Part shown: one piece after another, positions 1,373 through 55,096 of the stretch
How positions within the stretch are numbered: the first letter of the stretch is position 1
Layout of the letters: every line of letters begins with the position of its first letter
Source of the DNA: Candidatus Omnitrophota bacterium
Lineage (GTDB): Bacteria; Omnitrophota; Gorgyraeia; 2-01-FULL-45-10
Direction of reading: 5' to 3'
DNA length: 64,000 nt
Assembly: GCA_028699255.1 (NCBI GenBank)
Contig: JAQVUX010000007.1
Location: forward strand, 24,670 to 88,669
Made by a program: the position numbers and the translations under genes
The notes under the pieces: generated by a model
What the model saw: only the letters and a program-made list of their open reading frames with translations
Database searches by the model: none
Told to the model about the DNA's origin: nothing

Positions 1373-1849
1373 CTACCGGCTTATATTAAGTATCTTATAT
1401 TTCAACACACCCCTCGGCACCTGTATCTCGACCGAATCGCCTTTTTTATGGTTCAATAGGCCGGTACCTACCGGCGACTGGAGCGATATTTTGTTCTGGG
1501 CGTAATCCGCCTCTTCTTCGGATACTATCGTATATTCGAGTTCCTCGCCGGAATCGATATCTTTCAATTTTACGGTCGCCCCTACCAGAACCTCGTCGGA
1601 GGACATTTGTGAATTGTCGATTATTTGCGCGCTCGCAAGCTTCGTCTCGAGTTCGGCGATCTTCTTCTCGTTCATCCCTTGAGCGTCTTTTGCCGAATCA
1701 TACTCGGCGTTTTCACTTATGTCACCGTGAGCCCGCGCCTCGCCTATCGCGCGCGAAAGCTCCCTGCGCTTCGTCGTTTTCAGATACTCAAGTTCTTTCC
1801 TCAGTTTCTCATAACCTTCCGGCGTAAGATGCGTACTACCCCTTGTCAT
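1373..1849 (-). CDS. greA: transcription elongation factor GreA
   Basis: 158 aa; coiled-coil N-domain plus C-terminal GreA/GreB fold; 'AHGDISENAEYD' acidic tip. Confidence 0.85.
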   Translation of the reverse strand: MTRGSTHLTPEGYEKLRKELEYLKTTKRRELSRAIGEARAHGDISENAEYDSAKDAQGMNEKKIAELETKLASAQIIDNSQMSSDEVLVGATVKLKDIDSGEELEYTIVSEEEADYAQNKISLQSPVGTGLLNHKKGDSVEIQVPRGVLKYKILNISR

Positions 1850-1912
1850 AACTACCCCTATCTGGCCAACCGCGCAGGCTGACCGGTAATTTTATTCGGA
1901 TAACCTACACGG

Positions 1913-2560
1913 TTATCCCGTAATCAACTCTTCCATGTCATGCGGTAAAGGCGCTTCGAACTCCATAGACTTCCCGCTGATAGGATGTTTAAACGCAATC
2001 CTTGCGGCGTGGAGGGCAACTCTACCGAACCTTAATTTAAAATCTTTCCTGAAAGCATAAACACTTTCGCCCACTATAGGATGGCTTATCCGGGCTAAGT
2101 GTATGCGTATCTGGTTTGTCCTGCCGGTAACCGGCTCCACCTCGAGAATGCTAAAATCCGCACTGCGTCGTAACGTCCTGTATTTCGTTACCGCCGTATC
2201 GTGCCGCTTCTTATTCCTATTATATATGCCGCTTTCTATCGTGTCGAAATCTTTCGGGATCCTGCCCTGGACGATCGCTATGTAGCGCTTCGATACTTTC
2301 CTCTCCTTAAATTGTTCCATCAAAGATTGCCGGGCGGACTTTCCTTTGGAATATACGATTATGCCTGAGGTTTCGCGATCGAGCCGGTGGCATGGATAAG
2401 CGTTCGCTTCGATGCCGCGCGAGTCGAGCTCTTTATTTAAAAGAGCAGTGAGCGTATTCGTCTCTTTTTTCGGCGTCGGGATTACGAGAAGTCCGGACGC
2501 TTTGTCGCAAACAATCAGCCATTCATCTTCGTAAATGATGCGGTAGCGTTTATCGCCCAT
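1913..2560 (-). CDS. RluA-family pseudouridine synthase
   Basis: 215 aa; catalytic 'HRLDRETSG' motif. Confidence 0.8.
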   Translation of the reverse strand: MGDKRYRIIYEDEWLIVCDKASGLLVIPTPKKETNTLTALLNKELDSRGIEANAYPCHRLDRETSGIIVYSKGKSARQSLMEQFKERKVSKRYIAIVQGRIPKDFDTIESGIYNRNKKRHDTAVTKYRTLRRSADFSILEVEPVTGRTNQIRIHLARISHPIVGESVYAFRKDFKLRFGRVALHAARIAFKHPISGKSMEFEAPLPHDMEELITG

Positions 2561-31014: not shown

Positions 31015-32094
31015 TCACCTTCCAGCGTACTTATAATACGCCGCGCAAGTTCCTTCACTCGAAACCATGCAGGCTCCGACAGGATGTTCCGGATCACAAA
31101 GTTTGCCGAAGAGCTTGCATTCCGGCGGAGCCTTAACGCCTTTTATGACATCCCCGCAGATACACGCCCTGTTTTCTTTTGGCTTCGATATCTTCGGAAT
31201 GAATTTTTTATCCGTATCGAAATCCGAAAACTCTTTCCGTATTTTAAGCCCGCTCTTTTTTATAGCGCCTATGCCGCGCCACACCGAGGGATATTCTTCA
31301 AAGACCTTCTTCATGCTTTCCCGGGCGAGCGCGTTGCCATTTTTATTCATCATCCGCGTATATTGTATCTCGACCTTCGGCGTACGCTGTTTCACAAGCA
31401 TAAGTATCGCCTGCAAAATATCGAGCGGCTCAAAACCCGCCACAACGCACCGCTTATTCCGCCGCGGCAGGAATAAGTATGGCGTTATTCCTATTATAAC
31501 GCTGACATGCCCGGGGAGCAAGAATCCGTCGATATTGAGCCGGGGGTCTTCCGTCAGCGTCTTCAACGCCTCCGGCATCGTCTTATGTCCGCATAACACG
31601 GAGAAATTCTTAACCTTGTTCTTTCTGGCCGCAATAATGGACTGCGCTACCGTAGGCGCGGTCGTCTCGAAACCAACCCCAAGAAAAACGATCTCTTTGC
31701 CGGGGTTTTTCTTCGCGAGATCGAGCGCGTCGATACCGGAATACACCATCCGCACGTCCGCGCCGCGCGCCCTCTCCTTCTCAAGCGAGGAATAAGAGCC
31801 CGGCACCTTGAGCATATCGCCGAATGTTGTAATTATCATGTTTTTCCGGGCGGATAATGCTATCGCCTTATCGATAAATTCGTTCGGCGTAACACACACC
31901 GGGCATCCGGGGCCCGAGATCAGGTTTATATTGTCAGGCAACAGATCTTTCAGTCCGAAGCGGAATATGGAAACGGTATGCGTGCCGCAAACTTCCATAA
32001 AATTATACTGCCTGTTCACCTCCACTGACCTGCGTATCTCGGAGGCGACCTTATCTATAAGCTTTTTATTCCTGAATTCGTCAATGTATTTCAT
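31015..32094 (-). CDS. hypD: hydrogenase maturation protein HypD
   Basis: 359 aa; 'CGTHT', 'GPGCPVC' and C-terminal 'CxxC' HypD motifs. Confidence 0.85.
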   Translation of the reverse strand: MKYIDEFRNKKLIDKVASEIRRSVEVNRQYNFMEVCGTHTVSIFRFGLKDLLPDNINLISGPGCPVCVTPNEFIDKAIALSARKNMIITTFGDMLKVPGSYSSLEKERARGADVRMVYSGIDALDLAKKNPGKEIVFLGVGFETTAPTVAQSIIAARKNKVKNFSVLCGHKTMPEALKTLTEDPRLNIDGFLLPGHVSVIIGITPYLFLPRRNKRCVVAGFEPLDILQAILMLVKQRTPKVEIQYTRMMNKNGNALARESMKKVFEEYPSVWRGIGAIKKSGLKIRKEFSDFDTDKKFIPKISKPKENRACICGDVIKGVKAPPECKLFGKLCDPEHPVGACMVSSEGTCAAYYKYAGR

Positions 32095-49537: not shown

Positions 49538-50989
49538 ATGATAGAGTTCAAAAATAAAGTTCTTATTATAGGTTACGGTTCGGTATGTAAATGCGTGCTA
49601 CCCATATTATTTAAACACGTCCGCATCCCTTATAAAAATGTAACGATAATCGATTTTGAAGATAAGCGCGAAGAACTGCGTGAATGGATCAGGAAAGGCA
49701 TTACGTACCGCCGCGAAAAGATAACGCCCTCGAACATAACTCACGTCCTGGCTAAATATGTTTCGTCGGGCGGGCTTATAATAGACCTGGCGTGGAACAT
49801 CTCCTGTATCGACATACTTACCTGGTGCCACAATAACCATGTACTTTATATCAACACCTCCGTCGAAGAATGGGACCCGTATACAAACATAGAAGCAAAG
49901 CCACCCCTCGAAAAATCGCTTTATTACAGGCATATGGAACTGCGCCAGGTAACGAGCAGTTGGGAAAACTCGGCGATTACCGCTATAGTCGATCATGGGG
50001 CGAACCCCGGACTCATCTCGCATTTTACGAAGAAAGGCCTTATAGATATAGCGGGTAAACTAATACGCGATAAAGCGGTTACCAAAAAAGACGCTAAAGA
50101 ACTCGAAGGCCTTATGCGCGAAAAAGATTTCGCCAATCTTTCAATGAAACTCGAAGTTAAAACTATCCATTGCTCCGAACGCGACACTCAGGTCACAAAC
50201 AGGCCGAAGGAAGTCGGCGAGTTCGTCGGAACCTGGTCGATCGAAGGCTTGAGGGAGGAAGGCATATCACCGGCTGAGATGGGATGGGGCACTCACGAAA
50301 AGATGCTTCCACCATTCGCCAACGCGGCAAGTTACGGCCCCGGCAACCAGATATTTATTTCACAGATGGGTATGAACACATGGGTCCGCTCCTGGGTTCC
50401 TGGTTATGAAATTATTGGCATGGTCATAAGGCATGGTGAAGCGTTCTCGATATCGGAGAAGCTTACCGTCTGGAAAAACGGAAAGCCCATATACAGGCCG
50501 ACAGTCCATTACGCCTACATGCCATGCAATGAAACACTAACTTCACTCTACGAACTTCGCTGTAGAAACTACGACCTCCAGCCAAAGCTCCGCATAATGT
50601 CGGACGAGATAACCGGCGGTGAAGACATCCTCGGCGCGCTCATAATGGGACACAAGTATAATTCGTGGTGGACCGGGAGCGTTCTCAGCGTAGATGAATC
50701 AAGAAAACTCGTCCCCCACCAGAACGCGACAACGATGCAGGTCGCTATTGGCGTCGTCTCCGCTACAACGTGGATGATAGAAAATCCGCACAAGGGCGTC
50801 TGCGTGCCCGACGACCTGCCTCATGATTACATACTGGATATAGCAAAACCGTATCTTGGGAAGCTGGTGTCGCAACCTTACAACTGGACGCCGCTCACCA
50901 ATTACAGGGCATTCTTTAAGGAGAATCCAAACTCCTCGCTCGATACGAAAAACCTCTGGTGCTTCAAGAACTTCATGTTCAGGGATTAA
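49538..50989 (+). CDS. saccharopine-dehydrogenase-family polyamine enzyme (homospermidine synthase-like / carboxy(nor)spermidine dehydrogenase-like)
   Basis: 483 aa; Rossmann 'VLIIGYGSVC'; 'DHGANPGLISHF' block. Start reassigned from 49472 because that ATG lies inside the -35 box. Confidence 0.5.
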   Translation: MIEFKNKVLIIGYGSVCKCVLPILFKHVRIPYKNVTIIDFEDKREELREWIRKGITYRREKITPSNITHVLAKYVSSGGLIIDLAWNISCIDILTWCHNNHVLYINTSVEEWDPYTNIEAKPPLEKSLYYRHMELRQVTSSWENSAITAIVDHGANPGLISHFTKKGLIDIAGKLIRDKAVTKKDAKELEGLMREKDFANLSMKLEVKTIHCSERDTQVTNRPKEVGEFVGTWSIEGLREEGISPAEMGWGTHEKMLPPFANAASYGPGNQIFISQMGMNTWVRSWVPGYEIIGMVIRHGEAFSISEKLTVWKNGKPIYRPTVHYAYMPCNETLTSLYELRCRNYDLQPKLRIMSDEITGGEDILGALIMGHKYNSWWTGSVLSVDESRKLVPHQNATTMQVAIGVVSATTWMIENPHKGVCVPDDLPHDYILDIAKPYLGKLVSQPYNWTPLTNYRAFFKENPNSSLDTKNLWCFKNFMFRD

Positions 50990-50991
50990 TC

Positions 50992-52134
50992 ATGGAAGAG
51001 ATAAACTTACCGGAATTAAAAAAGATCGCGGAAAAGAACGGTACGCCCGTATTGGTAATAGATCACGAGAAGATACGGCAGAACTATAAGGAGTTTCGCG
51101 AAGCTCTGCCGCGCATACAGGCCTATTACGCGGTCAAGGCTAACTCCACCCCGGAGATCGTGGAAACACTCTATAAGCTGGGCGCGAGTTTCGATGTCGC
51201 CTCGTTCCCGGAGTTCCGCATCGTTTACGAGAATATAAAGAATATGCCCTCCAAAGAGCGGCAGGATTTCATCTGGGACAAGATAATTTACGCCAACACG
51301 ATAAAACAGGTCGAGACATTGCGTGAGCTCGACGTATATAAGCCGCTCGTTACCTTCGATAATCCCGAGGAATTGAAGAAGATAGTAAAAGACGCGCCGC
51401 ACGCAGGGCTCGTCTTACGCATACGCGTCCCGAACACCGGATCGATGGTCGAGCTTTCATCAAAGTTCGGAGCGGATCCCAGTGAAGCGGTAGACCTGAT
51501 AATAGAAGCGTTCAAATCCGGGCTTGTGGTCGAGGGTATAAGTTTTCACGTCGGAAGCCAGTGTAATAATTTCGAAAATTATATGCAGGCTCTGCAAATG
51601 TCGTCGGACATAATGAGAGAGGCCGCATCGCGCGGGCACAAGATAAACATATTGGACATAGGCGGCGGCTTCCCGGTCAGATATAACAGCAAAGTGAAAG
51701 CTTTCAAGACCCTGGCTCGCAAATTAAATACCGAGATAAACAGGTTATTCCCAAAAGATATCGAAATACTCGCGGAGCCCGGACGGTTCATGGTGGCCAA
51801 TGCCGGTACACTTGTAGCCAAGGTCATAGGAAAGGCTATCCGCGACGAGAAGACGTGCTACTACATAGACGATGGCATCTATCACACCTTCTCGGGGATC
51901 CTTTTCGACCACTGCACCTATCCTCTGAAGGCGTTCAAAGATGGCGAGACAAAAGTATCGGCCGTATTCGGGCCGACCTGCGACGCACTCGATACCATAT
52001 CTATCGCCGAGGAGCTTCCGGAGCTTGAGATAGGCGATCTGGTCTACGCGGAAAATATCGGGGCATATTCAATAGCGTCTTCGACATACTTTAATGGCTT
52101 CCCGCCGGCAAAAGTAGTGCATATCAATAAATAA
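50992..52134 (+). CDS. fold-III PLP-dependent decarboxylase (ornithine/DAP/carboxy(nor)spermidine decarboxylase family)
   Basis: 'YAVKAN' PLP-lysine motif; 'GGGFPV' motif; start at 'MEEINLPEL'. Confidence 0.7.
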   Translation: MEEINLPELKKIAEKNGTPVLVIDHEKIRQNYKEFREALPRIQAYYAVKANSTPEIVETLYKLGASFDVASFPEFRIVYENIKNMPSKERQDFIWDKIIYANTIKQVETLRELDVYKPLVTFDNPEELKKIVKDAPHAGLVLRIRVPNTGSMVELSSKFGADPSEAVDLIIEAFKSGLVVEGISFHVGSQCNNFENYMQALQMSSDIMREAASRGHKINILDIGGGFPVRYNSKVKAFKTLARKLNTEINRLFPKDIEILAEPGRFMVANAGTLVAKVIGKAIRDEKTCYYIDDGIYHTFSGILFDHCTYPLKAFKDGETKVSAVFGPTCDALDTISIAEELPELEIGDLVYAENIGAYSIASSTYFNGFPPAKVVHINK

Positions 52135-52163
52135 CATCCGTCATTGCGAGCGAAGTAATACAT

Positions 52164-52198
52164 TAAAAAAGCTATGGCTTTAAGCCATAGCTTTTTTA
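52164..52198. terminator. bidirectional Rho-independent terminator
   Basis: AAAAAA-agctatggc-tttaa-gccatagct-TTTTTT perfect hairpin flanked by A and T tracts; serves the plus-strand decarboxylase gene and the minus-strand tRNA-fMet. Confidence 0.7.
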
Positions 52199-52244
52199 AT
52201 TTGGTAGCGGGGGTCCGATTCGAACGGACGACCTTTGGGTTATG

Positions 52245-52866
52245 CTTACCACTACAGCTTTCGCTGCCTCCGAGCTATCGGAGTTTGTAGTCCGGACTAT
52301 ACCTTCATCCTATATGCTATCAGGATGCCTGCCGTCTAGTCTCTACACCTTCCCGCCGGTATTCTGACGGGCTTGGCTCGGTATTACCATTTCAGGCTTC
52401 ACCGAGTTTGACAGGTTTTCATTTAGCCGTTACCGGCTAAACAGCCCTTGGACAATAATTCCCATCGCTCTTTATACATCGCCGATCTAGGTTTACGTTG
52501 CCGCTTCTTCGTCTCTACCAAGCTGATACCGCTCTTATAGGTAGAAAATTCAAAAAACGGGATAACGTAAAATTTTTCCAACCGCTCGATGTACACTATT
52601 GCAAAGTCAAAGTCGTTTTCGCCATAACGCGATCTTAACATACGCCGGCGATTCGTCTTTGTCCTGCGGGTATCGACAGTATAACTACCATTGTAATACC
52701 ACGCGCTCTTCACCTGTATTTTTAGAAGCTTCCCACCTACATCGAGTGCAAGATCATAGGGCAATCTATCCCCTACCGGCCTTAGCACTCTGAAGCCTCT
52801 TTTGAGTAGCGCGGTTACAACGGCAGACTCTGCAATATCAGCTTTGAGCTTTGTGTCCATAACTTG
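52245..52866 (-). mobile_element. group I-like intron (622 nt) in the tRNA-fMet anticodon loop
   Basis: 5' exon ends in U and the intron ends in G. 3' region carries R-like 'GAGACUAGACGG' and S-like 'AAGGUAUAGUCC' elements that can form P7, plus a P-like 'CGGCGGGAAGG'. An ORF fills the 5' two-thirds. Confidence 0.65.
52423..52860 (-). CDS. intron-encoded PD-(D/E)xK nuclease (homing endonuclease candidate)
   Basis: 145 aa; 'AESAVVTALLKRGFRV...YDLALDVGGKLLKIQVK' restriction-endonuclease-like core (D...D...QxK); basic C-terminal region; lies wholly inside the intron. Confidence 0.6.
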   Translation of the reverse strand: MDTKLKADIAESAVVTALLKRGFRVLRPVGDRLPYDLALDVGGKLLKIQVKSAWYYNGSYTVDTRRTKTNRRRMLRSRYGENDFDFAIVYIERLEKFYVIPFFEFSTYKSGISLVETKKRQRKPRSAMYKERWELLSKGCLAGNG

Positions 52867-52910
52867 AGCCCAACGAGCTACCAGGCTGCTCCACCCCGCA
52901 ATGTAATTTT

Positions 52911-52940
52911 ATTATAACAAAATACGTCGGAGTATTGCAA
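52911..52940 (-). promoter_or_regulatory. sigma70 promoter of tRNA-fMet
   Basis: Minus strand TTGCAA-18nt-TATAAT ending about 9 nt before the mature tRNA 5' end. Confidence 0.55.
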
Positions 52941-52953
52941 CTCTTATTATTTA

Positions 52954-55096
<2,143 letters not shown>

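Follow-up and report, generated by a model that had tools for sequence, protein, structure and literature searches.

A tRNA-fMet gene of Candidatus Omnitrophota interrupted by a predicted group I intron that carries a homing-endonuclease reading frame

The window analyzed here is a 64,000-nucleotide (nt) stretch of contig JAQVUX010000007.1 (positions 24,670 to 88,669), from a Candidatus Omnitrophota bacterium (GenBank assembly GCA_028699255.1). It holds an initiator tRNA gene in two pieces, both on the minus strand, as are all window features described below unless the plus strand is named. The 5' exon (52867..52900, 34 nt) supplies tRNA positions 1-33, comprising the 5' strand of the acceptor stem, the D arm, the 5' strand of the anticodon stem, C32, and U33. 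The 3' exon (52202..52244, 43 nt) supplies positions 34-76, from C34, A35, and U36 to an encoded CCA. The 622 nt between tRNA positions 33 and 34 (52245..52866) begin with C52866, end with G52245, and constitute an IC3-like group I intron.

A preliminary description of this DNA, made from the letters alone, had placed the two tRNA halves and the 622-nt gap at these coordinates, and had proposed comparing tRNA detection with and without the insert. The coordinates are correct. ARAGORN finds no tRNA in the unspliced region, and calls a 77-nt tRNA-Met(CAT) only after the 622 nt are deleted; its sole call in the whole window is a tRNA-Thr. Of the 77 positions of the joined tRNA, 69 are identical in E. 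coli tRNA-fMet. Its ARAGORN drawing shows the initiator hallmarks that had been listed, namely, unpaired U1/U72, a CUCAUAA anticodon loop, and the pairs G29-31:C39-41. Direct reading of the sequence adds A11:U24. A second initiator tRNA was sought with ARAGORN and by an anticodon-arm search, and none was found in the window, which is all that these searches covered. Anticodon-arm matches at 31426 and 48156, with two mismatches each, occur at the expected frequency, have no flanking similarity, and were dismissed as chance.

Candidate signals for independent expression flank the gene. A sigma-70-like promoter (52911..52940) ends 10 nt upstream of tRNA position 1. It consists of TTGCAA (52940..52935), an 18-nt spacer, and a TG-extended TATAAT (52916..52911), with 10 of 12 consensus matches. 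Directly 3' of the CCA, an intrinsic-terminator-like hairpin (52162..52200), with an 18-bp stem and then a T run, sits between the tRNA and a convergent decarboxylase gene. Both elements had been predicted in the preliminary description, and both are present as consensus matches only. The same promoter accompanies the tRNA in relatives, even where the cassette is inverted.

Three consecutive G:C pairs in the anticodon stem are usually taken as an initiator hallmark. Many Omnitrophota tRNA-fMet genes at related loci (numbered with an L prefix; for example, L015, L022, L025, L027, L032, and L040) carry A29:U41 in place of G29:C41, with exon ends GCAAGGCT / CATAACCTTG. At these loci just two such pairs remain; the window copy retains the full set.

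The Rfam group I intron model (RF00028, Intron_gpI) matches 52269..52461 with E = 2.5e-12 and 58.7 bits, above its gathering score of 50, and the match covers model positions 1-253 of 253. The bases at the splice sites had been read correctly: U33 (52867) ends the 5' exon and G52245 ends the intron. It had also been proposed that the last 180 nt of the insert contain R- and S-like elements able to pair as P7. That pairing stands, and the extent was revised: the ribozyme portion is ~205 nt (52245..52449), and the reading frame upstream overlaps the guide sequence and P2.

The fold was assigned by hand on the window sequence, from P2 to P9 and including P7, and was then mapped to 57 related intron cores aligned with MAFFT. 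The P2 hairpin (52421..52442) has 9 bp and a GUAA tetraloop. P3 joins 52415..52410 with 52333..52328, and within its span (52328..52415) lie P4-P5 (52405..52378), P6 (52377..52347), and the R-like 5' strand of P7, GACUA (52341..52337). The P8 hairpin (52327..52306) follows P3. The S-like 3' strand of P7, UAGUC (52299..52295), pairs back to GACUA to form the P7 pseudoknot. The P9 domain (52245..52290) pairs CUAC (52290..52287) with GUGG (52252..52249) and contains P9a (52283..52268) and P9b (52266..52255), the latter with a GAAA loop, followed by UAAG up to the terminal G52245. All core helices pair in the window copy.

In the alignment, 95.5% of cells for the 54 pairs are standard pairs, a measure that favors the window because the structure was derived from its sequence, compared with 30-40% in controls that shift the 3' strands by 1-3 columns. 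Thirty-eight of the 54 pairs have changed on both sides, and none of 500 shuffles reaches any observed value. Compensatory changes affect all nine pairs of P2 (93.6% of cells paired) and five of the six in P8. Helices 2-7 of the assignment, in the P3 to P7 region, are paired in 96-100% of cells, and P7 itself is 100% paired with one covarying pair. The P9 register CUAC/GUGG is paired in 97.8% of cells, with UA, CG, and UG alternating at the variable pair. A competing register, ACUA/UAGU, was dropped: it is paired in 80.7% of cells, compared with 97.8% for CUAC/GUGG, which covaries. The segment GUAGAGACU, in the P3 to P7 region, is unchanged in 57 of 57 introns. The R-like GUAGAGACUAG and the S-like AUAGUCC are essentially invariant, and the terminal G is invariant. 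Judged by model score and covariation, the insert is a group I intron with IC3-like features. The covariance-model check and a foldable, covarying P3-P9 thus bear out what had been proposed.

Alignment reading and motif counts locate an internal guide sequence, AAG-GGCU, at 52443..52449. GGCU (52446..52443) can pair with exon residues G30-U33 to make P1, which places U33 opposite G52446. In most relatives the P10 guide position reads AUG or GUG, either of which could pair with the CAU of the 3' exon. Because the exon bases never vary, variation is one-sided, and P1 and P10 are pairings that we infer.

The remainder of the insert is largely taken up by an open reading frame (ORF) of 145 codons plus stop (52423..52860). 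The preliminary description had likened its product to the PD-(D/E)XK homing endonuclease I-Ssp6803I, and profile searches agree. The product matches Pfam family PF11645 (PDDEXK_5) with 146 bits (gathering score 26.1, E = 9e-43) over profile positions 1-137 of 138, and matches I-Ssp6803I itself (PDB 2OST) with E = 4.9e-47. A search against NCBIfam gave no family match. In an alignment of 12 sequences the product is 59% identical to I-Ssp6803I. D36, Q49, and K51 are invariant among the 12 homologues, I-Ssp6803I included, and E11 is nearly so; we take these to be the catalytic residues. The ORF has neither truncation nor frameshift. NCBI already lists this very protein, from a Candidatus Omnitrophica metagenome-assembled genome (MAG), under the name "group I intron-associated PD-(D/E)XK endonuclease."

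Comparison with ORF-less relatives (for example, L060, which reads GGGCU|CAAGAAAUGGGCUG) places the ORF in the loop of P1. Its last ~9 codons overlap the guide sequence and P2, and its stop codon, TAA (52425..52423), lies in the 3' strand of P2. The ATG is 6 nt past the 5' splice site. Most related loci likewise have the endonuclease start codon 2-10 nt past this site. With a start codon so near the splice site, any ribosome-binding site would fall in the tRNA 5' exon, within the D arm or anticodon stem. Translation would then compete with P1 formation or tRNA folding on one precursor.

We assign a probability of roughly 92% to the reading that this is a native Omnitrophota tRNA-fMet gene whose positions 33 and 34 are separated by a 622-nt group I intron of the IC3 type, with an I-Ssp6803I-family endonuclease gene in its P1 loop. 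Transcription from the gene's own promoter would yield a precursor of ~700 nt. The 3' ~205 nt of the intron would fold as the P2-P9 ribozyme, and GGCU would form P1 with G30-U33. An external guanosine would attack after U33, and the freed exon would then attack after G52245. Ligation would produce ...GGGCU|CAUAACCC... and hence a functional tRNA. The endonuclease may be translated from the precursor or from the excised intron. By analogy with I-Ssp6803I, it is predicted to cut the anticodon-arm DNA of intron-less tRNA-fMet genes, with GCTCGTTGGGCTCATAACCCAAAGG as the predicted target, and recombinational repair would copy the intron into the cut allele (homing). The target arm would differ from that of Synechocystis just at the 28:42 pair. 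Self-splicing of the intron is a prediction, as are the activity and target of the enzyme.

Several points weigh against this reading. P1 has just 4 bp, two of which are G-U pairs, which leaves little margin. Short P1 helices with G-U pairs are typical of IC3 introns carried by tRNA genes. P10 is weak in the window copy, where AAG (52449..52447) gives two of three pairs with the CAU of the 3' exon. Splicing and cleavage by this element are predicted from sequence. In addition, the initiator-tRNA search covered the 64-kb window.

The limited span of that search and the imperfect P10 are also what a decayed relic would have in its favor, that is, a tRNA-fMet pseudogene with an intron that no longer splices, in a cell with an intact initiator tRNA elsewhere. 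We consider a relic very unlikely. The exons keep every initiator hallmark and the 69 of 77 matches to E. coli tRNA-fMet, and promoter and terminator are in place. The core helices all pair, the fold covaries in relatives, and the ORF is full length relative to the Pfam profile. No other initiator-like anticodon arm is present in the window. Moreover, the gene occupies a conserved position beside genes for enolase and an FtsB-like protein, where relatives hold an intron-less tRNA-fMet.

That neighborhood marks the locus as native to Omnitrophota. Upstream of the tRNA lie a gene for a 92-aa FtsB/DivIC-like coiled-coil protein (52954..53232) and the enolase gene (53214..54500), which overlap by 19 nt. 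The convergent gene downstream (50959..52134, plus strand) encodes a putative pyridoxal phosphate (PLP)-type decarboxylase, labeled from its sequence only. All three names are provisional, and the genes are used here as synteny markers. The upstream neighbors recur with the split tRNA-fMet in many Omnitrophota genomes: of the related loci, 47 have enolase and 41 have the FtsB-like gene.

The genome is metagenome-assembled, a circumstance in which a cyanobacterial or phage intron fragment could have been misjoined into an Omnitrophota contig. The same exons, intron, and ORF, with enolase and FtsB-like flanks, appear in dozens of independently assembled MAGs. Relatives whose allele lacks the intron have the same exon sequence at this locus, and the endonuclease is just 59-64% identical to its cyanobacterial homologues. 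An assembly or binning artifact is therefore an explanation to which we give next to no weight.

Intron-less alleles were sought in metagenome contigs by using the exact spliced junction together with the T arm of this lineage. The search returned 33 contigs on which the identical tRNA is uninterrupted. Of these, 29 also have one or more of the three genes that flank it in the window, with enolase up to 92% identical, and the endonuclease gene is absent from all 33. ARAGORN calls the 77-nt tRNA-Met(CAT) in each of the 14 that were examined, and one of the intron-less contigs (L111) has the tRNA-Thr(CGT) of the window as well. Among relatives with the intron, enolases are 85-93% identical, the same range as in those without it. 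Such presence and absence of an intron at one site in close relatives fits what is expected of a mobile or recently gained or lost intron.

The coexistence of these alleles bears on whether the intron might splice and yet be immobile, with an endonuclease that is inactive or is kept for another function, such as RNA folding, and with vertical inheritance only. Endonuclease activity is a prediction, and endonuclease genes commonly degenerate after fixation of their intron (the Goddard-Burt cycle, cited in PMC1995217). However, the ORF is uninterrupted, its product retains 59% identity to the active I-Ssp6803I, and D36, Q49, and K51 are invariant. Intron-plus and intron-minus alleles among relatives with 85-93% identical enolases fit ongoing mobility, as does an endonuclease tree in which genes labeled as other phyla fall inside Omnitrophota clades. 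We regard an immobile intron as improbable, and prefer the reading of a native gene with an intron capable of homing.

Among intron-less relatives, the tRNA-fMet cassette, consisting of promoter and tRNA, is found in either orientation between the FtsB-like and decarboxylase genes. One orientation is seen in L088, L089, L091, L094, L099, and L114, and the other in L087, L092, L111, and the window (52162..52940). L041 has the inverted orientation with the intron present.

Relatives of the endonuclease are numerous. A homology search produced 1,654 clusters at 90% identity (E <= 1e-3), and an exhaustive search of 50%-identity representatives produced 231 at E <= 1e-10. In one-genome-per-species data, at least 354 stretches encode a relative. 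Locus architecture was counted in the best 80 of these at least 354 loci. Both tRNA-fMet exons are identifiable, with identical exon ends, in 74 of the 80, and in 61 the endonuclease lies inside an intron of 617-683 nt at U33|C34, with a start codon that is at most ~27 nt past the splice site. The majority are labeled Omnitrophota, or have Omnitrophota-like enolase and FtsB-like neighbors despite a "Planctomycetia" label. Other labels, on long contigs and in different genomic contexts, are Deltaproteobacteria (474 kb), Bacteroidetes (145 kb), Patescibacteria, Melainabacteria, Runella, and Cytophagales. These sequence data suggest that the endonuclease-bearing form is common in Omnitrophota and is also present in other phyla. 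Both points are new relative to the literature, as is the finding, described below, of free-standing genes of this enzyme family next to tRNA-Met(CAT) genes. The preliminary description had raised lateral transfer or a wider distribution, and both gain support from these counts and from the intron-less syntenic alleles.

A tRNA-fMet intron with an endonuclease gene is known from Synechocystis sp. PCC 6803; this intron and I-Ssp6803I were reportedly described by Biniszkiewicz et al. in 1994, Bonocora and Shub in 2001, and Zhao et al. in 2007 (the last with PDB 2OST). With a length of 655 nt and a 150-aa product, I-Ssp6803I (PMC1995217), the Synechocystis intron is close in size to that of the window (622 nt and 145 aa). 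Host gene, insertion site (33/34), and protein family (PF11645) are also shared. The host differs in being Omnitrophota rather than Cyanobacteriota, and the enzyme is ~41% diverged.

Small IC3 introns in the anticodon loop, in which P1 is short and both P2 and P9 are capped by GNRA loops, are also present in cyanobacterial and plastid tRNA-Leu(UAA) and in Azoarcus tRNA-Ile. These introns differ from that of the window in tRNA and in position (34/35 in tRNA-Leu), and they are without an endonuclease ORF.

A recent survey of 4,934 complete genomes (Nakagawa et al., mSystems 2026; PMC13011429) reported the tRNA-fMet insertion site 33/34. The survey found two tRNA-fMet introns with PF11645 genes, both in Cyanobacteriota, and listed ORF-less IC3 tRNA-fMet introns in Omnitrophota, Nitrospirota, Desulfobacterota, and Bacteroidota (its Table S5). 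Its authors regard endonuclease-bearing tRNA introns as rare, while allowing that draft genomes may show more (PMC13011429). The published ORF-less introns share the 33/34 site and the ribozyme lineage of the window. For example, the window core and the ORF-less intron of the Omnitrophota genome GCF_004102945.1, which those authors class as IC3, are 77.7% identical across 206 aligned nt. The published introns are 245-303 nt and have no endonuclease gene (PMC13011429), whereas the window holds the endonuclease-bearing form. In our literature search, no paper found describes an endonuclease-bearing tRNA-fMet intron in Omnitrophota. Because the Synechocystis architecture, the NCBI protein name, and the ORF-less Omnitrophota relatives were known already, the novelty is modest.

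Not all of the related loci are composite. In 13 of the 80 (L009, L028, L050, L058, L060, L064, L065, L071, L075, L076, L078, L079, and L080), the tRNA-fMet gene has an ORF-less intron of 195-324 nt, and a homologous endonuclease gene is free-standing beside the tRNA. Eight of these 13 introns reach the Rfam gathering score. The free-standing gene is mostly downstream of the tRNA, at ~50 nt to ~1.2 kb (L028, L050), and L058 has it on the opposite strand. Of the 13 loci, four are from true cyanobacteria. One of them, from Scytonema (L071), has a tRNA-fMet at 1086..~1405 with a 244-nt intron, and its endonuclease gene (1501..1971) begins ~95 nt past the CCA, beyond a terminator hairpin. A close relative of the window organism (L009) has the same neighbors with the split arrangement. 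In a rough neighbor-joining tree, without bootstrap support, free-standing and intronic genes are interleaved at several places, and I-Ssp6803I is sister to the free-standing cyanobacterial genes.

Four viral contigs from IMG/VR carry a free-standing homologue, 53-55% identical, within tRNA arrays (L081, 1501..1997; L082, 1501..1995; L083, 1501..2000; L084, 1501..1999). Each ends at most 6 nt from, or slightly overlaps, an intron-less tRNA-Met(CAT) gene, and no group I intron was found in these four contigs. The arrangement suggests intron-less homing directed against CAT-anticodon tRNA genes of competing phages. In L084, a suppressor-type tRNA with anticodon TTA, which reads UAA, is encoded at 1374..1447, just upstream of the endonuclease gene. 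Its presence hints at a phage with stop-codon reassignment.

Models of collaborative homing and of endonuclease-gene invasion of introns are reportedly those of Zeng et al. (2009) and Bonocora and Shub (2009). They rest so far on two phage systems in protein-coding genes (PMC3984707). The 13 loci with an ORF-less intron and an adjacent free-standing endonuclease resemble the precursor state that was proposed. The differences are that the related loci are on bacterial chromosomes and involve a tRNA gene, and that the window itself has the fused, composite state. We see about an even chance that PF11645 endonucleases and the tRNA-fMet IC3 intron make up a natural series of the proposed stages in the birth of a mobile intron, distributed over chromosomes and phages, common in Omnitrophota, and crossing phyla. 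In the first stage, found in phage tRNA arrays, the endonuclease gene would stand free and directly adjoin a tRNA-Met(CAT) gene that has no intron. In the second it would still stand free, but next to a tRNA-fMet gene with an ORF-less intron. In the third it would have become part of the P1 loop, which is the state of the window and of the 61 loci above. Because genes of the second and third stages are interleaved on the enzyme tree, the endonuclease may have moved into and out of the intron repeatedly.

The finding leaves the known mechanism unchanged. Because the gene is missed by standard tRNA finders, an initiator tRNA would seem to be lacking from this genome and from dozens of others in Omnitrophota. 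Dependence of the cell on splicing is conjectural; if this is the sole tRNA-fMet gene, all translation initiation would depend on RNA-catalyzed splicing. Judging by the related loci, tRNA-fMet introns with an endonuclease gene appear to be far commoner outside cyanobacteria than was evident from the complete-genome survey. If the series of stages is real, it would oppose the recent conclusion from complete genomes that such introns are rare and that their horizontal transfer is infrequent. The occurrence of intron-plus, intron-minus, and free-standing-endonuclease states in one lineage would make Omnitrophota tRNA-fMet genes a convenient system for the study of how endonucleases and introns join.

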